Shown: one piece after another, positions 3,096-44,720 of the stretch
How the letters are laid out: each line of letters starts with the position of its first letter
Numbering within the stretch: the stretch's first letter is position 1
DNA from: a plasmid
Sequence record: LC546831.1
Length of the DNA stretch: 64,000 bases
Direction: 5' to 3' (one strand)
Made by a program: the position numbers and the translations under genes
Notes under the pieces: generated by a model
Told to the model about the DNA's origin: nothing
The model's database searches: none
What the model saw: the letters and a program-made list of their open reading frames with translations, nothing else

Positions 3096-3968
<873 letters not shown>

Positions 3969-4105
3969 TCAATATTATTGAAGCATTTATCAGGGTTATT
4001 GTCTCATGAGCGGATACATATTTGAATGTATTTAGAAAAATAAACAAATAGGGGTTCCGCGCACATTTCCCCGAAAAGTGCCACCTGACGTCTAAGAAAC
4101 CATTA

Positions 4106-4165
4106 TTATCATGACATTTATTATCATGACATTTATTATCATGACATTTATTATCATGACATTAA
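4106..4165. repeat. Tandem 15-bp repeat (ATCATGACATTTATT, three extra copies) between the tnpR stop and the bla promoter region
   Basis: Sequence ATTATT(ATCATGACATTTATT)x3ATCATGACATTAACC; canonical Tn3 has a single ATTATTATCATGACATTAACC here. Confidence 0.8.
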
Positions 4166-4183
4166 CCTATAAAAATAAGCGTA

Positions 4184-4903
<720 letters not shown>

Positions 4904-7900
4904 ATGCCCGTTGACTTTCTGACCACTGAGCAGACTGAAAGCTATGGCAGATTCACCGGTGAACCGGATGAGCTTCAGCTGGCACGATATTTTCATCTTG
5001 ATGAAGCAGACAAGGAATTTATCGGAAAAAGCAGAGGTGATCACAACCGTCTGGGCATTGCCCTGCAAATTGGATGTGTCCGTTTTCTGGGCACCTTCCT
5101 CACCGATATGAATCATATTCCTTCCGGCGTCCGGCATTTTACCGCCAGACAGCTCGGGATTCGTGATATCACCGTTCTTGCAGAATACGGTCAGAGGGAA
5201 AATACCCGCCGTGAGCATGCAGCGCTGATACGTCAGCACTATCAGTATCGTGAATTTGCCTGGCCCTGGACATTTCGCCTTACCCGTCTTTTATATACCC
5301 GGAGCTGGATAAGCAACGAACGTCCTGGCCTGCTTTTCGATCTGGCGACAGGGTGGCTTATGCAACATCGTATTATTCTCCCCGGAGCCACTACGCTGAC
5401 CCGGTTGATTTCAGAGGTAAGGGAAAAGGCGACGTTGCGCCTGTGGAACAAACTGGCACTGATACCGTCAGCCGAACAACGTTCACAGCTGGAGATGCTG
5501 CTGGGGCCAACTGATTGCAGCCGCCTGTCTTTACTGGAATCACTGAAAAAAGGCCCTGTGACCATCAGTGGTCCGGCGTTTAATGAAGCAATTGAACGCT
5601 GGAAAACTCTGAACGATTTTGGCTTGCATGCTGACAACCTGAGTACACTCCCGGCTGTGCGCCTGAAAAATCTCGCACGTTATGCTGGTATGACTTCGGT
5701 GTTCAATATTGCCAGGATGTCACCGCAGAAAAGGATGGCGGTTCTGGTTGCCTTTGTCCTTGCATGGGAAACGCTGGCGTTGGATGATGCACTGGACGTT
5801 CTGGACGCCATGCTGGCCGTTATCATCCGTGACGCCAGAAAGATTGGGCAGAAAAAACGGCTCCGCTCGCTGAAGGATCTGGATAAATCTGCATTGGCGC
5901 TCGCCAGCGCATGTTCGTACCTGCTGAAAGAAGAAACACCGGACGAATCGATTCGTGCTGAGGTGTTCAGCTACATCCCCAGGCAAAAGCTGGCTGAAAT
6001 CATCACGCTTGTCCGTGAAATTGCCCGGCCCTCAGACGATAATTTTCATGAAGAAATGGTGGAGCAGTACGGGCGCGTTCGTCGTTTCCTGCCCCATCTG
6101 CTGAATACCGTTAAATTTTCATCCGCACCTGCCGGGGTTACCACTCTGAATGCCTGTGACTACCTCAGCCGGGAGTTCAGCTCACGGCGGCAGTTTTTTG
6201 ACGACGCACCAACGGAAATTATCAGTCGGTCATGGAAACGGCTGGTGATTAACAAGGAAAAACATATCACCCGCAGGGGATACACGCTCTGCTTTCTCAG
6301 TAAACTGCAGGATAGTCTGAGGCGGAGGGATGTCTACGTTACCGGCAGTAACCGGTGGGGAGATCCCCGAGCAAGATTACTACAGGGTGCTGACTGGCAG
6401 GCAAACCGGATTAAGGTTTATCGTTCTCTGGGACACCCGACAGACCCGCAGGAAGCAATAAAATCTCTGGGTCATCAGCTTGATAGTCGTTACAGACAGG
6501 TTGCTGCACGTCTTGGCGAAAATGAGGCTGTCGAACTCGATGTTTCTGGCCCGAAGCCCCGGTTGACAATTTCTCCCCTCGCCAGTCTTGATGAGCCGGA
6601 CAGTCTGAAACGACTGAGCAAAATGATCAGTGATCTGCTCCCTCCGGTGGATTTAACGGAGTTGCTGCTCGAAATTAACGCCCATACCGGATTTGCTGAT
6701 GAGTTTTTCCATGCTAGTGAAGCCAGTGCCAGAGTTGATGATCTGCCCGTCAGCATCAGCGCCGTGCTGATGGCTGAAGCCTGCAATATCGGTCTGGAAC
6801 CACTGATCAGATCAAATGTTCCTGCACTGACCCGACACCGGCTGAACTGGACAAAAGCGAACTATCTGCGGGCTGAAACTATCACCAGCGCTAATGCCAG
6901 ACTGGTTGATTTTCAGGCAACGCTGCCACTGGCACAGATATGGGGTGGCGGAGAAGTGGCATCTGCAGATGGAATGCGCTTTGTTACGCCAGTCAGAACA
7001 ATCAATGCCGGACCGAACCGCAAATACTTTGGTAATAACAGAGGGATCACCTGGTACAACTTTGTGTCCGATCAGTATTCCGGCTTTCATGGCATCGTTA
7101 TACCGGGGACGCTGAGGGACTCTATCTTTGTGCTGGAAGGCCTTCTGGAACAGGAGACCGGGCTGAATCCAACCGAAATTATGACCGATACAGCAGGTAC
7201 CAGCGAACTTGTCTTTGGCCTTTTCTGGCTGCTGGGATACCAGTTTTCTCCACGCCTGGCTGATGCCGGTGCTTCGGTTTTCTGGCGAATGGGCCATGAT
7301 GCCAACTATGGCGTGCTGAATGATATTGCCAGAGGGCAATCAGATCCCCGAAAAATAGTCCTTCAGTGGGACGAAATGATCCGGACCGCTGGCTCCCTGA
7401 AACTGGGCAAAGTACAGGCTTCAGTGCTGGTCCGTTCATTGCTGAAAAGTGAACGTCCTTCCGGACTGACTCAGGCAATCATTGAAGTGGGGCGCATCAA
7501 CAAAACGCTGTATCTGCTTAATTATATTGATGATGAAGATTACCGCCGGCGCATTCTGACCCAGCTTAATCGGGGAGAAAGCCGCCATGCCGTTGCCAGA
7601 GCCATCTGTCACGGTCAAAAAGGTGAGATAAGAAAACGATATACCGACGGTCAGGAAGATCAACTGGGCGCACTGGGGCTGGTCACTAACGCCGTCGTGT
7701 TATGGAACACTATGTATATGCAGGCAGCCCTGGATCATCTCCGGGCGCAAGGTGAAACACTGAATGATGAAGATATCGCACGCCTCTCCCCGCTTTGCCA
7801 CGGACATATCAATATGCTCGGCCATTATTCCTTCACGCTGGCAGAACTGGTGACCAAAGGACATCTGAGACCATTAAAAGAGGCGTCAGAGGTAGAAAAC

Positions 7901-7909
7901 GTTGCTTAA
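4904..7909 (+). CDS. tnpA: Tn3-family transposase TnpA (1001 aa)
   Basis: 1001-aa ORF MPVDFLTTEQTESYGRFTGEPDELQLARYFHL... ending 4 bp inside the right IR, as in Tn3. Confidence 0.97.
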   Translation: MPVDFLTTEQTESYGRFTGEPDELQLARYFHLDEADKEFIGKSRGDHNRLGIALQIGCVRFLGTFLTDMNHIPSGVRHFTARQLGIRDITVLAEYGQRENTRREHAALIRQHYQYREFAWPWTFRLTRLLYTRSWISNERPGLLFDLATGWLMQHRIILPGATTLTRLISEVREKATLRLWNKLALIPSAEQRSQLEMLLGPTDCSRLSLLESLKKGPVTISGPAFNEAIERWKTLNDFGLHADNLSTLPAVRLKNLARYAGMTSVFNIARMSPQKRMAVLVAFVLAWETLALDDALDVLDAMLAVIIRDARKIGQKKRLRSLKDLDKSALALASACSYLLKEETPDESIRAEVFSYIPRQKLAEIITLVREIARPSDDNFHEEMVEQYGRVRRFLPHLLNTVKFSSAPAGVTTLNACDYLSREFSSRRQFFDDAPTEIISRSWKRLVINKEKHITRRGYTLCFLSKLQDSLRRRDVYVTGSNRWGDPRARLLQGADWQANRIKVYRSLGHPTDPQEAIKSLGHQLDSRYRQVAARLGENEAVELDVSGPKPRLTISPLASLDEPDSLKRLSKMISDLLPPVDLTELLLEINAHTGFADEFFHASEASARVDDLPVSISAVLMAEACNIGLEPLIRSNVPALTRHRLNWTKANYLRAETITSANARLVDFQATLPLAQIWGGGEVASADGMRFVTPVRTINAGPNRKYFGNNRGITWYNFVSDQYSGFHGIVIPGTLRDSIFVLEGLLEQETGLNPTEIMTDTAGTSELVFGLFWLLGYQFSPRLADAGASVFWRMGHDANYGVLNDIARGQSDPRKIVLQWDEMIRTAGSLKLGKVQASVLVRSLLKSERPSGLTQAIIEVGRINKTLYLLNYIDDEDYRRRILTQLNRGESRHAVARAICHGQKGEIRKRYTDGQEDQLGALGLVTNAVVLWNTMYMQAALDHLRAQGETLNDEDIARLSPLCHGHINMLGHYSFTLAELVTKGHLRPLKEASEVENVA

Positions 7910-15506: not shown

Positions 15507-16439
15507 TTACTCCTGAAGGTGCAGCTCCTTCAGATTCGTTTCAAAGTAATCAACATAAATTCGCTCATTTTTGGGCTTCATTATCAGCTGAATACCGTTG
15601 GGAACGGGCGGACATGAGGCCCGGTAGGCGAACATCTCATCCTGGATATTCCGGAGCGTATAACCCAGTTGCTCTTCTTCTGCCCTTCCGGACACCCTGA
15701 TGCCGGATAATTCCTTCTCAACGTACTTTTTCAGCTTCTCGCTTCTTTTCATACTGCTGCGATTATCCAGAAACTGAAGCAAGAAATAGCGGATGACCGG
15801 CAGTGTGAACACCACATAGAAGAGGATCTCATTCAGCCCGGATTTCATGGAGATGCCGTAAACAAGCATCGCGACAGGCGAGACAATAAAAGCTGAAAGA
15901 TAAAACACGTGCAGCACCTTCCTGAGCGATTTGTCCCAGCCGAGGTTTTTTCCGTGGCACAGGAGCGCCATTACGGCCAGCGGCGCGTCATACACCTTAC
16001 TGACGTACCATCCCTCTTCGCCAAATCGCTTTCGTGCTTTTTCCGGACTGTCCCTGAAATAGGCAGCTGCCCGGATGATGTCATCCCGTGGGATCTCCTC
16101 CACCTTCAGGTCATTGCGCCGGATGCCCAGTACCCGGCAGTCGTACATTTCCTGGATTGAGGCTGCCTTCCTGCGCAGTGCCGCGATGTGTCCGCTGATG
16201 ATAATGTTAAAAGTAAGCACCAGGAGTCCATACAACCCCAGCAGTGAAGACAGCAGCTCTGAATCGACAAAGCCCCGGCTCCGGTTGTATACGGTAACGA
16301 GCGAAAGCAGGAGCGGCACGATGATGCTGAAGATAAAATTCAGCCTGTTCCAGTTTTTTACCCTGTCGTAAACACGGGCCTGCGCATACAGTAAATCCAG
16401 GTTTTCTCTGGTCGACTGGTTCGTGTAAATGGCATTCAT
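15507..16439 (-). CDS. SLATT-like multi-pass membrane effector (310 aa), downstream partner of the nucleotidyltransferase
   Basis: Two N-terminal TM helices (FIFSIIVPLLLSLVTVY, LLGLYGLLVLTFNIIISGHIAAL) and two more later; tightly coupled 3 bp after the SMODS gene. Confidence 0.55.
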   Translation of the reverse strand: MNAIYTNQSTRENLDLLYAQARVYDRVKNWNRLNFIFSIIVPLLLSLVTVYNRSRGFVDSELLSSLLGLYGLLVLTFNIIISGHIAALRRKAASIQEMYDCRVLGIRRNDLKVEEIPRDDIIRAAAYFRDSPEKARKRFGEEGWYVSKVYDAPLAVMALLCHGKNLGWDKSLRKVLHVFYLSAFIVSPVAMLVYGISMKSGLNEILFYVVFTLPVIRYFLLQFLDNRSSMKRSEKLKKYVEKELSGIRVSGRAEEEQLGYTLRNIQDEMFAYRASCPPVPNGIQLIMKPKNERIYVDYFETNLKELHLQE

Positions 16440-16442
16440 GGT

Positions 16443-17438
16443 TCACCCGTAAACAGGAAATAACGGCCCGAACACATCGCGCCATTTATTGATGGATTTT
16501 TCATACTCTTTGTTCTCCTCAAACCATCTCGCCTCCGATACCTTCTGCGCATCGAGATAACATCTGTCCGAAATCGCCTTACGCGCCTCGGCTGAAAGAG
16601 AGTTGATATCTCCCTGTATGCCTTTGGGATCGTTGACGGAGAACTGTACGTACAGACCGAGATGGCGGAAAAGCGCTTCCAGCTCCATATCGACAAACGA
16701 TGAGCAGGCTGACCTGCCGGCGTAATAGTCCAGAATCAGCGTCTCCAGCAGGTAGGAACTCATGGAGGGCATCGTCGGTCGCCGCTGCCAGTACTTGACT
16801 GCTCTGATGACATTCAGCACATTGCCGTCATTCTGCACATTGACAGTTGTGACTCTGTCCCTGTCTTTGCGGGGGTCGGTAAACTTCCAGTGGCCTTTGC
16901 CGTCGGGGATCAGATAGTAAGTCCGTCCAAAGGCATCTTCGCTGGTAATAAAGCAGGGTACGATGTCAAAATTCCAGTCCTTGCTGACCAGTTTCAGCGT
17001 GACGGCTTCCTGGTTACGCCTGATATCAGCTTGGGCGTATTGGGCAATGTCCTGCAGGCGGTTTTTAAAGGCATTCAGAATTCTGACGGAGCAGATAGTG
17101 TCAGCTCCGGAATGCCGATACCCGTGCAGGCGCGACCCCTCGCCGGAAGAGGTCAGAGTGATCCGGTCACTCAGAACGTTATAGGTGGCACTCTGCGCGG
17201 ATAAGCCGAACATCAGATCGATATCGTCCAGAGGACGGATTTTGGTTCTTCTGGCAAAGGATCCAAAGGCAATATGGATCGCTGGATAACTCACCGGAAA
17301 TTTATCGTCCTTCTCAAAATCATTCATCTTACCGATAAGCCAGTCGCGACTTGCACGCGCGTCATCGGTATCTGCCTTTTTGAGATTCACGGTATCTTTC
17401 ATAAATTCGTTAAAGGCAGCTATTACTGTGGTCGCCAT
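16443..17438 (-). CDS. SMODS-type cGAS/DncV-like nucleotidyltransferase (CBASS cyclase-like), 331 aa
   Basis: Pol-beta NTase motifs GSFARRTKIRPLDDIDLMF (GS...DxD) and third acidic NFDIVPCF; size and order (cyclase then TM effector) typical of minimal CBASS / SMODS-SLATT pairs. Confidence 0.6.
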   Translation of the reverse strand: MATTVIAAFNEFMKDTVNLKKADTDDARASRDWLIGKMNDFEKDDKFPVSYPAIHIAFGSFARRTKIRPLDDIDLMFGLSAQSATYNVLSDRITLTSSGEGSRLHGYRHSGADTICSVRILNAFKNRLQDIAQYAQADIRRNQEAVTLKLVSKDWNFDIVPCFITSEDAFGRTYYLIPDGKGHWKFTDPRKDRDRVTTVNVQNDGNVLNVIRAVKYWQRRPTMPSMSSYLLETLILDYYAGRSACSSFVDMELEALFRHLGLYVQFSVNDPKGIQGDINSLSAEARKAISDRCYLDAQKVSEARWFEENKEYEKSINKWRDVFGPLFPVYG

Positions 17439-18452: not shown

Positions 18453-19163
18453 ATGGGTGACTGGTTTATTGCCACCGAGGGCGTGAAAATCGTCAAAGAC
18501 AGTCCAGGCCTGTGGCCGCAGATCATTACGGGGTTTGCGGCGTTGGGCGGCGTGTACCTGGCCCACTACTTAACCCGCTGGCGTGAGGAAAGAACGGCGG
18601 CGGCGAAGCAGGCCAGTGAGCGTCTTTTTATCGCCACGGAGCTGGTCTTTTTGCTGGAGCAGTTTGCCGAGGGTTGTGCCCAGGTAGCCACGGACCAGGG
18701 CGAGCCCGATCAGCAAGGTGAGTATTCCCCAGCGGTAAAGGCGCCTGAGCTGACTGTCCTGGATGTTTCGGGGGACTGGCGCACGCTTCCTCCGCTGATC
18801 ATGTACCGGATTCGTGAGCTGCCCATACTGCAGAGCGAAGCCCGTCGGGATATTGCTGCAGCTGCAGAGCATAGTTGGGCTCCCTATCACAAAGAAGGTT
18901 TTCAGGAGCGTCAGTACCAGTATGCGCGCCTCGGGCTGAAGGCCCTGCTCCTCTCACGGCGCCTCCGCAAACTGGCCGGTCTGCCCGACACCCGCCTTGA
19001 TGCGACGGAATGGTCTGCCCAGCCTGTCCTCTGGAAGGCGTGGCGGGAGGAGCGTAACAGACGTTCGGTTCAGGCAAGGCTGCGGCGGCAAACTATCGCA
19101 CAGATGAATGTTGCCCTGCAGCAGAGCATAAAAAATAACAGCCTGTCGGGGAGGACGCCGTGA
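18453..19163 (+). CDS. Hypothetical protein (236 aa, one N-terminal TM), overlaps the recombinase gene start by 4 bp
   Basis: ORF translationally coupled (ATGA) to the downstream tyrosine recombinase. Confidence 0.45.
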   Translation: MGDWFIATEGVKIVKDSPGLWPQIITGFAALGGVYLAHYLTRWREERTAAAKQASERLFIATELVFLLEQFAEGCAQVATDQGEPDQQGEYSPAVKAPELTVLDVSGDWRTLPPLIMYRIRELPILQSEARRDIAAAAEHSWAPYHKEGFQERQYQYARLGLKALLLSRRLRKLAGLPDTRLDATEWSAQPVLWKAWREERNRRSVQARLRRQTIAQMNVALQQSIKNNSLSGRTP

Positions 19164-19933
19164 ATTTGCCAGCCCAGTATACCCAGCCCCCGGCTTTACA
19201 GTTACCAGTGGCGATTGATTATCCTGCTGCGCTTGCCCTGCGTCAGATGGCTCTTGTCCATGACGAACTGCCCAAATACCTGCTGGCGCCGGAGATCAGC
19301 GCCCTGCTCCACTACGTACCGGACTTGCACCGTAAACTGTTGCTGGCCACCCTGTGGAACAGCGGCGCCCGGATCAACGAGGCACTGGCGCTGACGCGCG
19401 AGAATTTCTCGCTGGCGCCGCCCTACCCGTTCGTGCAGCTGGCCACCCTCAAGCAGCGCACGGAAAAGGCGACCCGCAGCGCCGGCCGGTTGCCGGCGGC
19501 CAGCACGCCGCCGCGCGTGGTGCCGCTGTCCGATCCGCAGTACGTGGCGCAGCTGCAGATGATGGTGGCCACGCTGAAAATTCCGCTCGAGCGCCGCAAC
19601 GCGCGCACCGGCCGGATGGAAAAGGCGCGGCTGTGGACGATCACCGATCGGACGGTGCGCAGCTGGCTGGCGGAGGCGGTGGACGCCGCGGCGCGCGACG
19701 GGGTTACGTTCTCGGTGCCCGTCACTCCGCACACCTTCCGCCACAGCTACGCGATGCACATGCTGTATGCCGGCATTCCGCTCAAGGTACTGCAGGCGCT
19801 GATGGGGCACAAGTCGATCAGTTCGACGGAGGTCTACACCAAAGTCTTTGCGCTGGATGTGGCAGCGCGGCACCGGGTACAGTTCTCGATGCAGGAGACT
19901 GACGCGGTGGCAATGCTTAAAGGATTGAACTGA
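19160..19933 (+). CDS. Tyrosine site-specific recombinase (phage integrase family; plasmid resolvase/shufflon-type), 257 aa
   Basis: Catalytic R...HTFRHSYA...LMGHKSISSTEVYTKV (R-H-R-Y tetrad pattern). Confidence 0.85.
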   Translation: MNLPAQYTQPPALQLPVAIDYPAALALRQMALVHDELPKYLLAPEISALLHYVPDLHRKLLLATLWNSGARINEALALTRENFSLAPPYPFVQLATLKQRTEKATRSAGRLPAASTPPRVVPLSDPQYVAQLQMMVATLKIPLERRNARTGRMEKARLWTITDRTVRSWLAEAVDAAARDGVTFSVPVTPHTFRHSYAMHMLYAGIPLKVLQALMGHKSISSTEVYTKVFALDVAARHRVQFSMQETDAVAMLKGLN

Positions 19934-20095
19934 ATAGCGTCGATTTTTAGTTTCATGCGGTTTGTGGCGATTTGCACCCGTTTAGCCTCAATTGCTAAGC
20001 GCACCACGGGAAAAAGAGGAATGGAGCTGGTTGCTACCGCCTTTCGTCGGAGGTATCGAATTTTCCGCAATTAGTGATAGTGTCGAGATAATCAG

Positions 20096-20111
20096 GTTTC
20101 GCATGCGAAAT
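20096..20111. promoter_or_regulatory. Palindromic operator copy 1, GTTTCGCATGCGAAAT (one mismatch)
   Basis: Member of a 7-copy family of the 16-bp perfect palindrome GTTTCGCATGCGAAAC. Confidence 0.6.
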
Positions 20112-20131
20112 TTATTATGAAGGAGATGATG

Positions 20132-20326
20132 ATGATTCAACCCCATCTTGGTCGTTATTCAACGGTCTGTTTGGTCTGTGCCATAATTAACGGATGTACC
20201 GTAGCTTACAATGGATTTTTCCGCTCAGGAGAGATGTCCATAGTTCTGAACTCACTTTTGGCTCTATCTTGTGTTGCATTGGTGTATGTCGGTATTGGCT
20301 TGGAAAAGGTGAGCAAATCGAATTGA
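20132..20326 (+). CDS. Small membrane protein (about 64 aa; the upstream ATG at 20117 lacks a good RBS)
   Basis: AAGGAG RBS then ATG; two hydrophobic helices. Confidence 0.4.
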   Translation: MIQPHLGRYSTVCLVCAIINGCTVAYNGFFRSGEMSIVLNSLLALSCVALVYVGIGLEKVSKSN

Positions 20327-20330
20327 TGAC

Positions 20331-20346
20331 GTTTCGCATGCGAAAC
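20331..20346. promoter_or_regulatory. Palindromic operator copy 2, GTTTCGCATGCGAAAC
   Basis: Perfect 16-bp palindrome. Confidence 0.6.
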
Positions 20347-20392
20347 TTTTCTAAATGCATTTGGTAGTGGAATTTACAAGGAGGATGTACGA

Positions 20393-20581
20393 ATGGAGAG
20401 ATTACATTCAGCGGTGTTTTCTGTACTGCTATTGATTATGGCATGTTTGTTTTTTGGTCTGTATTGGTACGGCGATGATAGTCTGCGCCCTTCCCTGATA
20501 ACGATAGTATTCGCCGTCATCAGTCTCACTGGCGGAGTTCTAACCATGATCAGCTATGCGTTGTCTGCAAGGAAAAACTAG
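20393..20581 (+). CDS. Small membrane protein (62 aa, two TM)
   Basis: GGAGG RBS; hydrophobic. Confidence 0.4.
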   Translation: MERLHSAVFSVLLLIMACLFFGLYWYGDDSLRPSLITIVFAVISLTGGVLTMISYALSARKN

Positions 20582-20596
20582 TTTCGCATGCGAAAC
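20581..20596. promoter_or_regulatory. Palindromic operator copy 3, GTTTCGCATGCGAAAC
   Basis: Perfect 16-bp palindrome. Confidence 0.6.
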
Positions 20597-20734
20597 CTCT
20601 ATTGTGACGAGAAAGCTATGTTGGAGTATCCTGCTCCTTTACTGGTTTAATGACTAACGCGCTGCGCTTGTTAACTGCGGCACGCCTGCGAAATGATTTC
20701 GCCAGGCTTTTCCGCAGTATCCCCTCTTCCTAAA

Positions 20735-20750
20735 GTTTCGCATGCGAAAT
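20735..20750. promoter_or_regulatory. Palindromic operator copy 4, GTTTCGCATGCGAAAT (one mismatch)
   Basis: 16-bp palindrome family. Confidence 0.6.
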
Positions 20751-20871
20751 TCCTCCATATTTTTAAATATCTTTATTGATATTTGATTTATTGTGAGCTA
20801 TATTCTCTGTACTGATAGTGGAAAGCCACTATCGACTCTCTGGCGCAAAGCCATACTCAAAGGAGAATGTC

Positions 20872-21213
20872 ATGCAACACAATGCACTCGTTGGTCGACT
20901 GATCACTCAGCCTGTCTTTGTAGTCAAAGACGACACACGGTTCTGCCGTTTCACCGTAGCTGAACTGAGAAAACGCAGTGGTAACCAAACCAAAATCGAA
21001 TTCACCGCTTTTGATGCCGTAGCCTCGCATATTGCCGATAAGTGCCTGGTCGGCGATACCGTTTCCATCAATTTCACCATCACCAATGCTGTCTATGAGT
21101 CGGATGGTGTTAATCATCATGGCTATCGGTTTCAGGCGACGTTGGTTGAATTCGTTGCCGCCGGCAAACAGCGCCGTGAGCAAGTGAGTCAACGTATTGG
21201 ACAAGGTCGTTAA
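20872..21213 (+). CDS. SSB/PriB-like OB-fold single-strand DNA-binding protein, divergent (113 aa)
   Basis: N-terminus MQHNALVGRLITQPVFVV...RFTVAE... and beta-rich pattern resembling the SSB OB fold; AAGGAG RBS. Confidence 0.4.
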   Translation: MQHNALVGRLITQPVFVVKDDTRFCRFTVAELRKRSGNQTKIEFTAFDAVASHIADKCLVGDTVSINFTITNAVYESDGVNHHGYRFQATLVEFVAAGKQRREQVSQRIGQGR

Positions 21214-21220
21214 CTTCCCG

Positions 21221-21236
21221 GTTTCGCATGCGAAAC
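21221..21236. promoter_or_regulatory. Palindromic operator copy 5, GTTTCGCATGCGAAAC
   Basis: Perfect 16-bp palindrome. Confidence 0.6.
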
Positions 21237-21262
21237 TGACCTAACTACCAGAGGTCGAGTTT

Positions 21263-21529
21263 ATGTCGATTTATATGGAATTACGCTGCGAACTCCGAGG
21301 GGAGTTACCAATTAACGAGTCAAAATGTTGGTCAGAAGTTGACCGCAGCCTGTGGGCAATGGCATTAAACACCCATGAGTCTACAGAACAGACCACAACA
21401 GAACTTTTAAGCAAGGCCACCCATGCCGGTTGGCAAAGTATTAATGGTGATTGGATATGCCCTGGCTGCCAAGAAAATCTGGCATTAACAGAGCAGATGC
21501 AGGCAGTCGCCGAAAGGCATGACCAATAA
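21263..21529 (+). CDS. Hypothetical protein (88 aa) with a CxxC pair (CPGC)
   Basis: ORF between two palindrome copies. Confidence 0.35.
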   Translation: MSIYMELRCELRGELPINESKCWSEVDRSLWAMALNTHESTEQTTTELLSKATHAGWQSINGDWICPGCQENLALTEQMQAVAERHDQ

Positions 21530-21537
21530 CAGTCTTA

Positions 21538-21553
21538 GTTTCGCATGCGAAAC
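21538..21553. promoter_or_regulatory. Palindromic operator copy 6, GTTTCGCATGCGAAAC, 20 bp upstream of parA
   Basis: Perfect 16-bp palindrome. Confidence 0.6.
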
Positions 21554-21573
21554 TTTTGAAGAGGATTTCTAAG

Positions 21574-22416
21574 ATGACAGCGAAAGTAATCACGATTTGT
21601 TCACAAAAAGGTGGCATCGGTAAGACCTTTGCCACAACGGAAATAGCGGCAGAGCTGCAGCGTCGCAGCTATCGGACATGTGCAGTTGATGGGGATTGGA
21701 TGAGCGCGCTGACGTCGCGCCAATTCCCCGATGGCCTGCCGCTGGAAATCGATGCCAATCCTTCAGGGCGCGTTCTTACGCCGGGCACCGCACACGTCAA
21801 TCGCATCTATGGGGAAGAACCCTTTGAGCCGCTGCGGCTGCATGATGGCCGTGGATTTATGGGGGCGACGGAACAGCTGAACGATATCAACAACCGCAAC
21901 TCCGATTGTATCTACGATTTCCGCGCCCGCTTCGCGGAGCTGCGCGACCAATTTGACTATATCCTGATTGACTCGTCGCCAGTCTGGTCAAACTTGCTGA
22001 TGGCCAATCACCTGGTCGCCGATTATCTGTTGATCCCAACGCTGTTGGAAAAAACATCCCGCCTCGGCGCCGAAAAACACCTGCGCACGTTGAAGAAAAT
22101 CAAGGAGCGGTATAACCCAGACCTCAAACTGCTGGGGATCGTGGTTACTCAGGCGACGGTGGCCAACTATAAGAAAGAAGTGCTGGGTGGTCGTTATGCG
22201 AGTGTCGATACCGAGAATCTCAAGATGTTGCTGGAGATCCTGGAAGAGAATGGTTTCGGGCCGGAGCATTTGCTGGAGATTATTCCCTATGTTCAAACCA
22301 AGGTCCGTGAAGCCATTGAGTTGAACTACACCATGAAAGAATACGCGCCGGACAGCCCATTGGTGGCTCGTTATGACGCGCTGGTTGACACTATCATTGC
22401 ACGGACAGGGGGCTGA
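21574..22416 (+). CDS. parA: ParA/Soj-family partition ATPase
   Basis: Deviant Walker A KGGIGKT in MTAKVITICSQKGGIGKTF. Confidence 0.85.
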   Translation: MTAKVITICSQKGGIGKTFATTEIAAELQRRSYRTCAVDGDWMSALTSRQFPDGLPLEIDANPSGRVLTPGTAHVNRIYGEEPFEPLRLHDGRGFMGATEQLNDINNRNSDCIYDFRARFAELRDQFDYILIDSSPVWSNLLMANHLVADYLLIPTLLEKTSRLGAEKHLRTLKKIKERYNPDLKLLGIVVTQATVANYKKEVLGGRYASVDTENLKMLLEILEENGFGPEHLLEIIPYVQTKVREAIELNYTMKEYAPDSPLVARYDALVDTIIARTGG

Positions 22417-22420
22417 CACG

Positions 22421-23557
22421 ATGGCCAAAAATTTCAAAGCCCAAATGCGTGAAAAGCGCGAAAAGGCCGCTTCACCGCAAACGCAGGTTGAAACTCCCGC
22501 AGTCGAACGCGAACTGGCGTTACCGCGTAATGACCTGAACCAGAACGAGCTGAAGGTCAACCGGGCTGAGCACGAGGACCCTGCGGGTCAGATAATTCGT
22601 GTTCCAATCGATGATGTCTACGCTATTGACCAGGTTCGCCCCGAAGACGACTTTGATGATGAAGTTATCGACGGGATGAAACAAACCTACGGCGACTTCG
22701 GCATTTTATCACCTCCTCGTTGTTTCCCCCGCGATAAGCGCGGATATCGCATTTGGTTGGGTGAAACGCGAGTGCGTTCTGCAAAGAAAAAAGGGGATTT
22801 GTTCATCGACATTTATGTCGGCCTGCCGCCTGAAAATGAGAAGAAGCGCATCTATGGGCAGCTGATCGAAAATCTTCACCAGTCTGGGTTAAAACCGTTA
22901 GCCACAGCAATACAGCTGCAGGCACTTCGCGATGTGCATGGTGAAACTCAGGAGTCGATGTCTCGTATTTTGGGTAAACCCAAAACGTTCATCAGTAAAC
23001 ACATGCGGTTGATTGATGCGCCGGCGCCGGTCATCGCTCTGCTGAAAGAAAAGGTGACCAAAGATGTCGACCTGGTCTATACGCTGTGCCAAATCAACGA
23101 TATCAGTCCAGAGAGCGTTGATAAACTGGCCAAACTGGTTCGGGATGGGAAGCTCACGCGCCAGGGAGCGATTAAAGAGCTGAACGTCCTGAAGGGCAAG
23201 CCGCCAAAGAACCCGCCGCCTCCGGCGCCATCAACCAACTCCGGGACAGAAACTCAGGAAGAGAACCGTAACAAAGATGTATTGACGGAACATCCGGGAA
23301 CTTCGACGAATCAAACCGGCAACACCGCCGGCGAACAGCAGAATGCCGGCAACGAACAGACCCATAAGACGCAACCGCTACAGGGCGAGTCTAACGTCAA
23401 AATCACTCGTGTCATGGTGAAGTTTGAGGGGGGGGAAGGCTATTTGCTGACTGACCGGATACCCGAGGAATATGGCCAGGTTTGGATAGCGCTGCCGTTA
23501 GGTGAACTGTGCATCGATGCCGCAGAAATATCTATCCTGGGGATCAAAGAGGTATAG
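22421..23557 (+). CDS. parB: ParB-family protein (N-terminal ParB/Srx domain with a GETRVRSA box-II-like motif), 378 aa
   Basis: Located 4 bp after parA; ParB box motifs; likely binds the parS-like GTTTCGCATGCGAAAC sites. Confidence 0.7.
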   Translation: MAKNFKAQMREKREKAASPQTQVETPAVERELALPRNDLNQNELKVNRAEHEDPAGQIIRVPIDDVYAIDQVRPEDDFDDEVIDGMKQTYGDFGILSPPRCFPRDKRGYRIWLGETRVRSAKKKGDLFIDIYVGLPPENEKKRIYGQLIENLHQSGLKPLATAIQLQALRDVHGETQESMSRILGKPKTFISKHMRLIDAPAPVIALLKEKVTKDVDLVYTLCQINDISPESVDKLAKLVRDGKLTRQGAIKELNVLKGKPPKNPPPPAPSTNSGTETQEENRNKDVLTEHPGTSTNQTGNTAGEQQNAGNEQTHKTQPLQGESNVKITRVMVKFEGGEGYLLTDRIPEEYGQVWIALPLGELCIDAAEISILGIKEV

Positions 23558-23995
23558 ATGAGTAAAGCGCTGTTTGCAGACCTGGCGGAGCAGTTTTTAT
23601 CCGTCGCAGTCAAAACCTGGGTGATACGTTCAGAATTACCGGCCGCTGCTGCGGCCGATGTTTTGCTTACCACTGCAATCCAGCAGGGCTTCCTGGAAGA
23701 CCGTGGACGCCCTTTATTGGGTAATACACTCAATGAGTGGGGGAAGAACAAGAAATACCCGCGATGGGCCATACAGAGCGCTATGGCTCTCCTTTTGGCT
23801 GATGGGTGGAAACCCGTCACCCATCCTGAATGGGCTGCCTATGCGGCTATACACGTTCAGTCTAAAAAGGGGGGATCGCTCACCCAACTCCTCGATGTTT
23901 TGCCGGAAGGGCTGGACATTGATGTGGCGGCAGGTTGGATCTGCGCGGCGACGGAAGACGCTGCCAGATATCATGATAGGAAAAAGCTGCGATGA
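23558..23995 (+). CDS. Hypothetical protein (145 aa)
   Basis: ORF immediately after parB. Confidence 0.4.
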   Translation: MSKALFADLAEQFLSVAVKTWVIRSELPAAAAADVLLTTAIQQGFLEDRGRPLLGNTLNEWGKNKKYPRWAIQSAMALLLADGWKPVTHPEWAAYAAIHVQSKKGGSLTQLLDVLPEGLDIDVAAGWICAATEDAARYHDRKKLR

Positions 23996-24312
23996 CGTTT
24001 TCTGATATTGAGGCCGCACTGTCCAGTACCGGGCGGCGTGCTTACGCCGGCGTCATTTTAGCTTTCCTGCTTGATGCTCACGATCGTGGTGCTGGTCTGG
24101 TCGAGAAGCACACTGTGGTGGAGAATGTCGGGATCACCGACACCAATGTTTCGGCGGTGGCGCGGCGCCTGGAGGAACAAGGGATAATCGAGATCCTCTA
24201 CTGGGATACAAAATCCGAGAGTCCCACATGGTCCAGCCTACGGAACGGTGCTTGGTCAGCCCCCGGATATCGTCTGCTGCCAGCTGTACTGCAGTTGTAT
24301 CGTCGTTGCTGA
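23992..24312 (+). CDS. Hypothetical protein (106 aa), possible winged-helix fold
   Basis: ATGA-coupled to the upstream gene. Confidence 0.4.
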   Translation: MTFSDIEAALSSTGRRAYAGVILAFLLDAHDRGAGLVEKHTVVENVGITDTNVSAVARRLEEQGIIEILYWDTKSESPTWSSLRNGAWSAPGYRLLPAVLQLYRRC

Positions 24313-24320
24313 ATGACAAG

Positions 24321-24336
24321 GTTTCGCATGCGAAAC
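24321..24336. promoter_or_regulatory. Palindromic operator copy 7, GTTTCGCATGCGAAAC, 35 bp upstream of the 442-aa gene
   Basis: Perfect 16-bp palindrome. Confidence 0.6.
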
Positions 24337-24370: not shown

Positions 24371-25699
24371 ATGAAACTGGTAACGAAGAAATCACCCAGA
24401 GGTCGACTGTTCGATGAGTTATCGCCTGAACAGGCGACGGCGGTAGGCAACGTTTGTGGCAAAGGACGCGTTACTTCGCTGGTTGAAAAACAGTTGGCTG
24501 AAGAGGTGCTGAGAAGCATGCGTGATAATGATCTTTGGCTGTCTTGCGGTTGCCGCACGACTGCAGAAGATCGGCCACTTAACACCGTCTGTAACCGCGA
24601 CGGATCTTTGTTCCTGGTGAATTTCAGCGGAGAGCACAGCTCGGATTGTCCGCTGTATCGTTCAAAGCGGGGTGATGATGGCACAGGGCAGGGCGGCGGG
24701 CGCCGAACAGCCGGCGCCGTGCGCATTGATTTTCGCTCTTTCTTGCCGCGAGACGATAATGGGGCTCGTATCGCTGGGCCGGCGAAGACAAACAGTCATG
24801 GCAAAGACAAAACAAGTCGGCGCCGTATACCCGCGTTGGCACGCCTGCTGCTGACCTTGATCGAGGCCGCTGGGCTTAATCGCATCGAACCGGTTTACCC
24901 TCAGCCAGGACAAACCAAAACGCAGGCGCTCAATGCGGTGAAGTTGGTTACCGAGATGGAGCACTTTGCCCAGGGTCGTCCTCTGAGCGAGATTGTATTC
25001 TTCGACCCCTGGCTGAAACAAGAACGGCTCGATGCGCGCATGCGTGAACTTGAAAACGAGGGTAAAGCCTGGCCTGCAGGGAGAGCACGAACTTTCTACC
25101 AGATCCTGTTCTCTGAGCAGGTGACACAAGATGAGGTCGTTTTCAAAAGTAAGTTCGGTGAGACAATATTCCGGCCCGAAAAGCGAGTGAGCATCAACGG
25201 CGAGGTTGATGGTCATCGGGAGAAATACTGGGTGATCCTGATGTACCGGCGCAATGATGCTGGTACGGTCGTTTGCCGCGATGCTTATGCGCATGCGCTC
25301 TTTGATTACGCCTGCCCGGTTCCGGTCGACAGTAACCTTGAACGTGAAACCATTAACTCCATCATTACTGGGGGGAAGTGGCTGCAGAGTTCAGGCTATG
25401 AGTTATCCCTTAACAAACCGCTGTTCGATATCACTGTGGACCTTGATGGCGAGGAGCGTTTTGTTTTGCCTGACTTCCTTTTGACTGTCAAACACCCTGG
25501 GCGGGTGCGAACGTCGGAGCTTGTTATCGAGACGATGGGGTATACTGATGATGACTACGTCGAACGCAAAGCGAATCAGCATAAGGGTATGAGGGAATTG
25601 GGGTTGTTGCTGAAAGATCCCCCTTATTGGCCGGCACCGGCCGATAAGCGTGATGCATTTGCACGGTATTTGTATGGGCGAATTTCGCACTTAAAATAG
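24371..25699 (+). CDS. Hypothetical 442-aa protein with an N-terminal Cys cluster (SCGC..C..C) and a C-terminal region suggestive of a nuclease-like fold; plasmid-associated family
   Basis: Long ORF with its own palindrome-associated promoter; no confident family assignment. Confidence 0.5.
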   Translation: MKLVTKKSPRGRLFDELSPEQATAVGNVCGKGRVTSLVEKQLAEEVLRSMRDNDLWLSCGCRTTAEDRPLNTVCNRDGSLFLVNFSGEHSSDCPLYRSKRGDDGTGQGGGRRTAGAVRIDFRSFLPRDDNGARIAGPAKTNSHGKDKTSRRRIPALARLLLTLIEAAGLNRIEPVYPQPGQTKTQALNAVKLVTEMEHFAQGRPLSEIVFFDPWLKQERLDARMRELENEGKAWPAGRARTFYQILFSEQVTQDEVVFKSKFGETIFRPEKRVSINGEVDGHREKYWVILMYRRNDAGTVVCRDAYAHALFDYACPVPVDSNLERETINSIITGGKWLQSSGYELSLNKPLFDITVDLDGEERFVLPDFLLTVKHPGRVRTSELVIETMGYTDDDYVERKANQHKGMRELGLLLKDPPYWPAPADKRDAFARYLYGRISHLK

Positions 25700-44299: not shown

Positions 44300-44720
44300 T
44301 TAAAATCCCTAGCCCTGGTGAAAATCTAGCCTTTTCGGGATCTCGAGTCAACAAATTCGCGCTCTTTGGGTTAACAGCATCACACCCCACGCAAAAATTC
44401 TTTTTGCAGATAATTCCATTATAAACAATGTGATAGCGTTATTTTTAAAGATATGGTTTGAGTTAATGAACTTTAAGTGAATCGCTTGTGATTTACTGGT
44501 GATTCGTATAAAAATCATATTTGGATTCGCATGTGATTCATTCTATAAAATACAGTAAGTTATATGATAAATTGTGAAACAATTGCAGAAAGTGATTCGT
44601 CTATGAATTGTGTAATCACTTGTTAATATGGCTAAAAACTGATATATGAATCGTCAGTGAATCATTATTTGCGATTCGAGAATTCAAAATAACTTATCGT
44701 GATGGAGTGAAAAGTAACCT
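44300..44720. promoter_or_regulatory. oriT: oriT region, with the putative nic site on the minus strand between 44381 and 44382, within ...TTTTTGCGTGGGGTGT^GATGCTG... Downstream AT-rich traM promoter region carries 10 or more TGATTCG/CGAATCA motifs (candidate TraM/IHF binding sites)
   Basis: Reverse complement of 44375-44397 closely matches the F nic region TTTGCGTGGGGTGT^GGTGCT; repeats read directly. Confidence 0.55.

Follow-up and report, generated by a model that had tools for sequence, protein, structure and literature searches.

The closest experimentally proven counterpart of the partition locus analysed here, which lies on plasmid record LC546831.1, is the parAB053-parS system of IncC plasmids. 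In the IncC plasmid R55, ParB binds parS in electrophoretic mobility shift assays (EMSA), where parS is a 22-bp inverted repeat with the invariant 14-bp core TTTCACATGTGAAA (Nagy et al., Nucleic Acids Res 2024; PMC10954446). Both ParA and ParB are required for the stabilisation of a site-bearing replicon, parS itself confers centromere incompatibility, and ParB represses the parA promoter, PparA (PMC10954446). R55 carries 14 mostly intergenic parS copies scattered over its backbone, some of them beside AcaCD promoters (PMC10954446). We analysed a stretch of 64,000 nucleotides of LC546831.1 (the window; positions are counted from its first letter, one strand, 5′ to 3′), in which seven copies of the 16-bp palindrome GTTTCGCATGCGAAAC surround a parA-parB gene pair. 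Comparison with characterised systems suggests that these palindromes are very probably where the KorB-type ParB encoded by this plasmid binds, as its parS centromere and at the same time its operator.

Two further systems serve as points of reference. On NAH7 (IncP-9), a parA-parB-parR-parC cluster encodes a ParB that binds TTTCTCGCATGCGAGAAA in EMSA, and this site occurs in six intergenic copies close to par and to transfer genes (Kishida et al., mBio 2025; PMC12421886). The KorB-OB-KorA-IncC system of RK2/RP4 (IncP-1) combines a 16-bp operator, present at promoter-proximal and promoter-distal sites, with a sliding clamp dependent on cytidine triphosphate (CTP) and a KorA lock (McLean et al., Nat Microbiol 2025; PMC11790492). 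The OB operator reads TTTAGCSGCTAAA (PMC10954446), and according to work cited there, only OB3 is needed for partition in RK2, while the other OB sites regulate (cited in PMC10954446).

The palindrome array

The window belongs to an F-like conjugative plasmid of Serratia marcescens, and the region is ∼95% identical to S. marcescens conjugative plasmids typed MOBF/MPF_F. Allowing up to two mismatches, a search of the 64-kb window returned seven matches to GTTTCGCATGCGAAAC, starting at 20096, 20331, 20581, 20735, 21221, 21538, and 24321. Five are perfect, while the copies at 20096 and 20735 have a terminal C-to-T change and read GTTTCGCATGCGAAAT. The mismatch search thus reproduced the number, coordinates, and perfect-to-variant ratio given in the original prediction, an earlier reading of the same DNA, and its statement that the motif occurs nowhere else in the window also held, as relaxing the search to three mismatches added no further palindrome. 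Counting the motif against dinucleotide-preserving shuffles showed the expected enrichment, with seven copies found where 0.06 are expected by chance (mean; maximum 2) and none of 100 shuffles attaining seven. The invariant part of the palindrome is the 14-mer TTTCGCATGCGAAA, and its outermost pair (position ±8) is G/C in the window. The seven sites are as follows.

20096–20111: site 1, GTTTCGCATGCGAAAT; 163 bp past the integrase stop codon and ∼15 bp ahead of the ribosome-binding site (RBS) and ATG of a small membrane-protein open reading frame (ORF)
20331–20346: site 2, perfect; 5 bp past the stop of a 69-amino-acid ORF and 47 bp ahead of the ATG of a 62-amino-acid ORF
20581–20596: site 3, perfect; its first base doubles as the final base of the TAG stop of the 62-amino-acid ORF
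20735–20750: site 4, GTTTCGCATGCGAAAT; the promoter-associated copy, ending 25 bp 5′ of the operon −35 element
21221–21236: site 5, perfect; 8 bp past the ssb-like stop and 27 bp ahead of the orf88 ATG
21538–21553: site 6, perfect and parA-proximal; 9 bp past the orf88 stop, with the parA RBS 7–10 bp on and the ATG 21 bp on
24321–24336: site 7, perfect; 9 bp past the orf106 stop, at the end of the four-gene module, and 35 bp ahead of the orf442 ATG

All seven palindromes are intergenic, though only 14–16% of the 19.9–24.4 kb region could accommodate an intergenic 16-mer (p ∼1e-6). A stop codon lies 0–9 bp ahead of five of the seven, and a start codon follows 15–47 bp beyond five. The earlier gene calls were correct, and the placement derived from them, with each copy either 20–60 bp short of a start codon or directly behind a stop, stands for six sites; the only exception is the copy at 20735, 154 bp past a stop, 122 bp short of the next start, and 25 bp 5′ of a −35 element.

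Conservation of the site and the module across the ParB family

Relatives of the window ParB were found by tblastn on 1,944 plasmid records, of which 734 cover most of the protein and 800 are from Klebsiella; they include a pLVPK-type IncFIB/IncHI1B plasmid carrying rmpA. The 22 loci compared, four on plasmids and 18 taken from a species-level genome collection, span ParB identities of 38–70% and come from Serratia, Yersinia, Klebsiella, Kluyvera, Mixta, Izhakiella, Erwinia, Pantoea, Morganella, and Providencia. The unchanged 14-mer TTTCGCATGCGAAA is present in 22 of 22 loci, in 2–11 copies each (at least four wherever both flanks are covered). Positions are conserved as well: one copy lies 7–10 bp ahead of the parA RBS, another ∼220 bp further 5′ and, in relatives with the parA-parB-orf145-orf106 module, a third just 3′ of the fourth gene. 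The palindrome therefore travels with the ParB family across about ten genera, which supports the earlier proposal of a tie to the neighbouring ParB, and it appears from these sequences to be common to a large enterobacterial plasmid family that includes Klebsiella virulence plasmids.

In most clades, one palindrome copy falls within parB itself, in frame as ATT TCG CAT GCG AAA TC, where it encodes the conserved peptide ISHAKS in an otherwise variable, disordered linker of ParB. Such a copy is found at 6637–6653 of locus L004 (parB 5833–6864) and also in L005, L011–L018, and L021–L025, and some ParBs have two, while the Serratia clade of the window has none. An in-frame copy that forces ISHAKS into a variable linker points to selection on the DNA sequence, and the core is invariant across lineages, without compensatory changes; the alignments thus indicate selection on DNA sequence and not on RNA pairing. 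Bacillus subtilis also has a parS copy inside spo0J itself, with which the ISHAKS copies may be compared.

The sites are also present where the rest of the module is missing. Loci L019, L020, and L022 have parA-parB and 6–11 sites, yet are without orf145 and orf106, and L025 is without orf145. As the sites persist without these two genes, ParB is the sole sequence-specific DNA-binding candidate common to all loci, and it is likely to bind the palindromes. At the outermost position, ±8, the half-sites of the Serratia clade carry G in 42 of 46 cases, and every other clade has A. Since ±8 differs by clade, the recognised element would span at least 16 bp and would have drifted along with the protein. 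Position ±3 is G in the window-ParB family and A in IncC and on an Alteromonas plasmid.

A further feature was seen in the Klebsiella-type clade, where a short leader ORF (MKSRNEF…) with a good RBS seems to run across the parA-proximal palindrome and to terminate in …NISHAKS*. It lies at ∼4868–4957 of L004, with equivalents in L013, L014, L015, L017, and L018.

The ParA and ParB proteins

The genes of the array region, all on the + strand, are listed here in order.

20117–20581, + strand: two small hydrophobic ORFs (69 and 62 amino acids), each bracketed by sites
20872–21213, + strand: SSB-like gene, 113 amino acids; the first gene 3′ of the promoter, scoring 22.5 bits for SSB, under the 26-bit cutoff
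21263–21529, + strand: orf88, between sites 5 and 6; confined to close relatives
21574–22416, + strand: parA, 280 amino acids; Walker/deviant-Walker ATPase (KGGIGKT) with no N-terminal helix-turn-helix (HTH) domain
22421–23557, + strand: parB, 378 amino acids; ParB_N, HTH_ParB, and KorB domains, a disordered linker, and a conserved C-terminal domain
23558–23995, + strand: orf145, the conserved third gene of the module; predicted all-helical
23992–24312, + strand: orf106, the conserved fourth gene of the module; predicted winged helix-turn-helix DNA-binding protein
24371–25699, + strand: orf442, the first gene past the last site; no Pfam or NCBIfam match

ParA matches AAA_31 (7e-21) and CbiA (4e-15), and parB begins directly 3′ of it, with the parA stop at 22416 and the parB start at 22421. 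The neighbour first described as ParB-like is a KorB-type ParB: its KorB domain (PF08535) scores 36.6 bits against a cutoff of 22.3 (E 4.6e-9), and it also passes TIGR00180 (60.7 bits; cutoff 58.45) and HTH_ParB (26.3 bits; cutoff 22.6). Among solved structures, Noc/ParB/Spo0J proteins are the best matches (E 4e-12 to 1e-8), while matches to KorB structures are weaker (PDB 8qa8, E 4e-4; 1r71, E 7e-4). The C-terminal SH3-like dimerisation domain of KorB (PF06613) gave no match to the window ParB at E ≤ 0.01; it is precomputed for many 40–47%-identical homologues, with which the C-terminal 50 amino acids align well.

The recognition helix was compared between proteins with different site types. 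In the alignment, six of the seven proteins with a G-type site have SK(H/Y/R), and the two A-type proteins have ST or SQ. The lysine of this motif, Lys192, is a candidate reader of the G at ±3, tentatively so given the few independent lineages behind the correlation. Arg196 was considered for the same role and rejected, as it is inconsistent among G-type proteins and Lys192 fits better.

The promoter, the second inverted repeat, and orf106

Two features between site 4 and the SSB-like gene bear on the control of the operon.

20776–20804, + strand: predicted sigma-70 promoter TTGATA-17-TATATT, with 10 of 12 consensus matches and 14.9 bits
20763–20786, no strand assigned: second inverted repeat TTAAATATCTTTATTGATATTTGA, core ATC-N6-GAT, overlapping the operon −35

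Consensus and simple weight-matrix scans agree that this is the sole strong promoter in 19.9–24.5 kb, the next best scoring 10.4 bits. It would presumably drive the SSB-like gene, orf88, parA, parB, orf145, and orf106, and possibly orf442. The gaps between genes 3′ of it are mostly 44–66 bp, each holding a palindrome and an RBS. Gaps of this size leave no room for promoters and there is one strong promoter, so most sites would lie inside an operon; most simply, the SSB-like gene through orf106, perhaps with orf442, form one transcription unit. The idea of one operator per flanked gene does not survive this arrangement. A promoter within each palindrome was also considered, since TGCGAAACT, made up of its right end and the following base, looks like an extended −10, and was rejected: the implied start would fall within the parA RBS, the score is only 6–7 bits, and the sequence in other clades is GAAATC. 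In Klebsiella, Providencia, Mixta, Erwinia, and Pantoea, the distal site ends 17–25 bp 5′ of a TTGATA −35, which is followed by a good −10.

The ATC-N6-GAT repeat, whose outer arms are clade-specific, occurs at the same place in ∼13 of 17 loci with orf106 and in none of three without it; the Providencia version reads TTCATTGCATATCAATATTGATATGCAATGAA. The orf106 product is a predicted winged helix-turn-helix protein (predicted local distance difference test, pLDDT, 89.9), the alignment behind it being shallow (eight close relatives). Its structural neighbours are MarR/PadR/ArsR proteins, AspA, and TubR (probability 1.0, E ∼2e-3, template modelling score ∼0.55), of which AspA and TubR are plasmid centromere binders. 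The second repeat is probably the operator of a second regulator, for which the modelled orf106 product is the candidate. With a different inverted repeat over the operon −35 that co-occurs with a winged-helix gene, the proposal that a single repressor controls the whole module becomes doubtful.

Distribution over whole plasmids

On the complete 76.5-kb relative from S. marcescens (NZ_CP027301.1), all nine sites fall within 4.7 kb around par, compared with seven of seven within 4.2 kb in the window. No site was found outside 20.1–24.3 kb of the window, oriT and tra included, or elsewhere on the complete relative, rep included. On a Providencia plasmid, four of four copies surround par, as do three perfect copies and one variant on a Klebsiella pLVPK-type plasmid. 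The array had earlier been likened to the dispersed KorB operator network of IncP plasmids, a likeness that fails in the window's lineage, where every site lies within 4.2–4.7 kb around par. Elsewhere in the family, the picture differs. Of the ten copies on Serratia plymuthica p75 (NC_021594.1; locus L028; ParB 69% identical), three are remote from par, at 21886, 36298, and 54007, all perfect; one lies ∼77 bp 5′ of the gene for an SLT transglycosylase next to oriT/traM, one directly behind traF, and one directly behind a replication gene (rep). The remote sites hint at wider regulation in some family members, and a plasmid-wide network may be emerging or decaying there.

The number of sites varies among close relatives, with arrays of seven, eight, or nine. 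Relatives of 95% identity carry 350–507 bp more at window 19923–19953 (L001 8723–9073; L002 22126–22633), with one or two extra palindromes, and site-bracketed small-ORF units vary in number among close relatives. Site-specific cassette exchange was considered for this indel and is unsupported, as the indel ends do not lie at palindromes.

Two observations concern loci other than the array. The pLVPK-type plasmid NZ_CP087641.1 (L031, L033) has two partition loci, the KorB-type parAB with palindromes and a separate sopAB beside RepB; a literature search on the pLVPK parB or centromere returned only work on the separate sopABC locus. Within the window, 44460–44700, 5′ of traM, holds GATTCG…GAATC repeats that are likely TraM binding sites, one of which is superficially palindrome-like (four mismatches). 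A three-mismatch match beside traM in a relative, GATTCGCATGTGAATC, was considered as a degenerate oriT-proximal site and rejected, as it belongs to this repeat family.

Proposed mechanism and alternative explanations

Binding of the palindromes by ParB, centromere activity, and autoregulation are inferred by homology to IncC, NAH7, and RK2 KorB/OB. The original prediction already suggested that the palindrome might serve ParB as both centromere and operator, and this gains from IncC, whose ParB binds a near-identical palindrome that is both centromere and auto-operator (PMC10954446). In the proposed mechanism, the palindromes would be the parS sites of the plasmid's only ParABS system; the annotation of the complete 76.5-kb relative shows no second partition locus, whether ParA/ParB, Sop, or ParM. 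The KorB-domain ParB would, as a dimer, recognise the 16-bp palindrome through its helix-turn-helix, and seven such sites in 4.2 kb around parAB would nucleate one large ParB-DNA partition complex, which ParA, a short Walker ATPase, would then segregate. ParA lacks a DNA-binding domain, so the same ParB-site contacts would also set the expression of the operon, through site 4 at the promoter and site 6 at the parA RBS. Binding of the winged-helix orf106 product to the second repeat over the −35 would add a second factor to this control.

Several points weigh against this reading. The bare 14-bp core is not bound by IncC ParB, so flanks count (PMC10954446), and NAH7 ParB activates conjugation genes, so that repression by the window ParB is not a given (PMC12421886). 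Only site 4 of the seven stands where a classical operator would, and the operon encodes a second DNA-binding candidate, orf106. ParB_N scores 23.7 in Pfam, short of the gathering cutoff of 26.3. The CTP-pocket motifs of the window ParB (residues 114–121 and 150–156) read GETRVRSA for GERRxRA and ENLHQSG(L) for ENLQRxDL. Atypical motifs run throughout this ParB family, with G, T, R, and R invariant and GATR (Glu to Ala) in Pantoea members, while the IncC, NAH7, and IMG/VR relatives retain the canonical GERRxRA and ENxQRxDL. From these residues, sliding-clamp behaviour may differ or be absent, and KorB-like sliding is therefore not assumed for the window ParB. Finally, a literature search for the 16-mer and its 12-mer core returned no paper with the palindrome in a relevant context.

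The alternatives differ in which part of this scheme they replace. ParB could be purely a KorB-like transcription factor and the palindromes its operators, with the centromere elsewhere or partition independent of sites. The KorB domain, one site just 5′ of the operon promoter, and another ahead of parA would suit such a role, as would the need for OB3 alone in RK2 partition (cited in PMC10954446) and the regulation of transfer genes by NAH7 ParB through parS. No other repeat family lies around par, however, most sites are away from promoters, the intragenic parB copy has no obvious regulatory logic, and near-identical sites are proven centromeres in IncC, the closest characterised relative; we regard purely operator sites as unlikely. 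It is more improbable again that the palindromes are bound not by ParB but by another protein of the operon, orf106 (or orf145 or orf88), despite the confident winged-helix prediction for orf106, its resemblance to MarR/PadR, AspA, and TubR, and its co-conservation with parAB in most loci. Six to eleven perfect sites remain where orf145 and orf106 are missing (L019, L020, L022), L025 has lost orf145, and orf88 is found only in close relatives. What tracks orf106 is instead the separate ATC-N6-GAT repeat, and the ParBs of IncC and NAH7 directly bind near-identical palindromes.

Two further explanations are the least credible. The sites lie between cistrons and several look terminator-like in a consensus scan (a 6-bp stem, in some cases followed by a T-run), so they could act in RNA, as intercistronic hairpins, weak terminators, stabilisers like repetitive extragenic palindromic (REP) elements, or processing sites of a polycistronic mRNA. 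The hairpin, however, is weak (∼−6 kcal/mol), and local folds do not outperform those of shuffled sequences (z −1.6 to +0.2). Sequence invariance with zero compensatory pairs down to lineages of 38% identity, copies 5′ of promoters and within the parB coding sequence, and the perfect two-fold symmetry that marks a dimeric DNA binder make an RNA-level role highly improbable. Recombination by the tyrosine recombinase encoded at 19160–19933, with the palindromes bounding mobile gene cassettes like attC, is equally hard to credit. Its integrase gene adjoins the array in the window and several relatives, and site-bracketed units do vary (7, 8, or 9 sites), but many loci have sites and parAB with no integrase within the ≤7 kb of flank examined, the indel at 19923–19953 does not end at a palindrome, and recombination would explain neither the parB-internal copy nor the strict association with ParB. 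Core sites of tyrosine recombinases also have a 6–8-bp overlap region, and a palindrome of 7+2+7 is without one.

Plasmid context

Ahead of the array, the window carries in order a Tn3-type transposon with a beta-lactamase, umuDC, a SMODS/4TM pair, and a ResD-like tyrosine recombinase (19160–19933). The Tn3-family transposon spans 3096–7909, with a class A beta-lactamase (3096–3956, − strand), a resolvase (4184–4810, − strand), and a transposase (4904–7909, + strand). The SMODS nucleotidyltransferase and SMODS-associated 4TM effector (15507–17438, − strand) make up a module like the cyclic oligonucleotide-based antiphage signalling system (CBASS), just 5′ of the recombinase and par region. On the 3′ side of the array, the leading region encodes a methylase, an antirestriction protein, a large ParB-nuclease-like protein, PsiB, and PsiA, and is followed by TraM/oriT and the tra operon.

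Within the array, the SSB-like gene is annotated as SSB in one relative and lies immediately 5′ of parA in loci L007 and L008. For orf145, neither a relative of known function nor an informative structural neighbour was detected; its structure model is moderate (pLDDT 79), and the other four models are much worse. A DUF1173 protein, as encoded near par in NAH7 and Klebsiella, was considered for orf442 and rejected for lack of similarity.

Occurrence beyond enterobacterial plasmids and significance

A scan of IMG/VR viral contigs for the 14-mer returned further cases, and those given here are among the matches listed. They include inovirus-like contigs (Rep_trans, Zot; 52–60% G+C) with five sites (L102) or four (L142 and L087). 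L102 encodes a 387-amino-acid protein with ParB_N and KorB domains, whose N-terminus overlaps a site, while the 7.7-kb L142, two ORFs of which were scanned against Pfam, gave no tblastn match to the window ParB at E ≤ 1e-4. Also among the matches listed are contigs that carry four or five copies of the 14-mer and encode a ParA-ParB pair of 28% identity. Another contig, L076 (1779–5158; 28% G+C), has four copies of AATTTCGCATGCGAAATT near a CI/LexA-like repressor (HTH_3 and Peptidase_S24) and an integrase, where an unrelated protein may use the same palindrome as its operator, or the match may be coincidental. On these sequences, the 14-mer appears to be in use beyond the enterobacterial ParB family.

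A more far-reaching idea, which we think rather unlikely, is that TTTCGCATGCGAAA serves as a "centromere currency" of otherwise unrelated mobile elements (enterobacterial F-like, IncFIB, and IncHI1B plasmids, inovirus-like contigs of high-GC bacteria, and contigs whose ParB is 28% identical), some of which could hijack or sabotage one another's partition, as SGI1 does against IncC. In this idea, ParB and orf106 would act as a silencer like KorB and KorA, with a non-homologous partner.

The finding is real and biologically meaningful, although it leaves the general understanding of ParABS and KorB unchanged and will not surprise specialists. What it provides is a parS sequence, concrete enough to be tested, for a large ParB family that had not been characterised before and that includes clinically important Klebsiella plasmids. 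A defined centromere could be put to use in incompatibility-based curing, plasmid typing, orthogonal fluorescent ParB/parS labelling, and predicting interference between co-resident plasmids. The series from chromosomal parS through IncC and the window family to NAH7, together with the candidate lysine, offers a small natural experiment in the drift of ParB specificity.

Comparison with known systems

IncC parAB053 and the window system share a short Walker ParA, a ParB with ParB and KorB domains, a multi-copy and mostly intergenic palindrome with a 14-bp core of the form TTTCNCATGNGAAA, one site copy at the par promoter, and a small HTH-type gene 3′ of parB. The window and IncC ParBs are 28% identical over 246 amino acids (E 1e-20), and the ParAs 27%. 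The IncC motif was located 63 bp 5′ of parA in an IncC plasmid, and GTTTCACATGTGAAAC lies 42 bp 5′ of parA on an Alteromonas plasmid. A single symmetric position separates the two cores, TTTCACATGTGAAA in IncC and TTTCGCATGCGAAA here (±3: A/T in IncC, G/C here), and the flanks differ as well, with C at ±8 and AAAC/GTTT arms in IncC compared with G or A at ±8 and no such arms in the window family. Site specificity thus appears related to that of IncC, yet distinct. The IncC sites are spread backbone-wide, whereas those of the window are confined to ∼4.5 kb. In IncC, parS overlaps the −10, whereas the window has a site 25 bp 5′ of the −35 plus a separate copy ahead of the parA RBS. The window module also has two extra genes, orf145 and orf106, and its ParB reads GETRVRSA where IncC ParB has the CTP motif GERRWRA. 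Homology of orf106 to IncC 053 was considered and rejected (E 0.58); orf106 is an analogous small, predicted winged-HTH protein rather than a demonstrable homologue.

NAH7 and RK2 KorB/OB are more distant from the window system than IncC is. NAH7 has a four-gene par cluster, and its site shares the central CGCATGCG and T-rich arms with the window palindrome. However, its ParB is 22% identical to the window ParB (pairwise E 0.002) and its ParA 24%, the site is 18 bp with another arm sequence, the partner ParR is of the KorA/TrfB type and not a winged helix, and the hosts are Pseudomonas, Xanthomonas, and Burkholderia. With RK2, the window shares a KorB-domain ParB paired with a short ParA (named IncC in RK2), a 16-bp palindrome, which in RK2 is operator, centromere, and silencer, operators both close to and distant from promoters, and a second small DNA-binding co-repressor at the core promoter, for which orf106 is the window's candidate. 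OB is unrelated to the window palindrome save for the TTT…AAA arms, and similarity to KorB is weak (8qa8, E 4e-4). RK2 operators stand at replication and transfer promoters, and none do so in the window's plasmid lineage; CTP clamp activity is proven for KorB. Searches found no TrfB/KorA match in orf88, orf145, or orf106, and no + strand ORF of at least 50 amino acids nested in parA.

Chromosomal ParB/Spo0J proteins belong to the same superfamily, give the best PDB sequence matches, and use a parS, TGTTTCACGTGAAACA, whose half-site GTTTC(G/A)C is nearly identical. The resemblance to chromosomal parS noted in the original prediction accordingly holds for the half-sites (GTTTCGC and GTTTCAC) and not for their spacing: in the window they stand 2 bp (AT) further apart, and in register only two of eight positions per half agree. 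IncC provides an intermediate form, and the sites can be arranged in a series from chromosomal GTTTCAC/GTGAAAC through IncC GTTTCAC-AT-GTGAAAC and the window family GTTTCGC-AT-GCGAAAC to NAH7 TTTCTCGC-AT-GCGAGAAA. The window system also differs from the chromosomal one in its plasmid-type ParA, in the extra KorB-type and C-terminal domains of its ParB, and in its atypical arginine patch. Taken against these systems, the locus on LC546831.1 is a previously undescribed and fairly ordinary relative of the IncC and IncP systems, with a specificity of its own.

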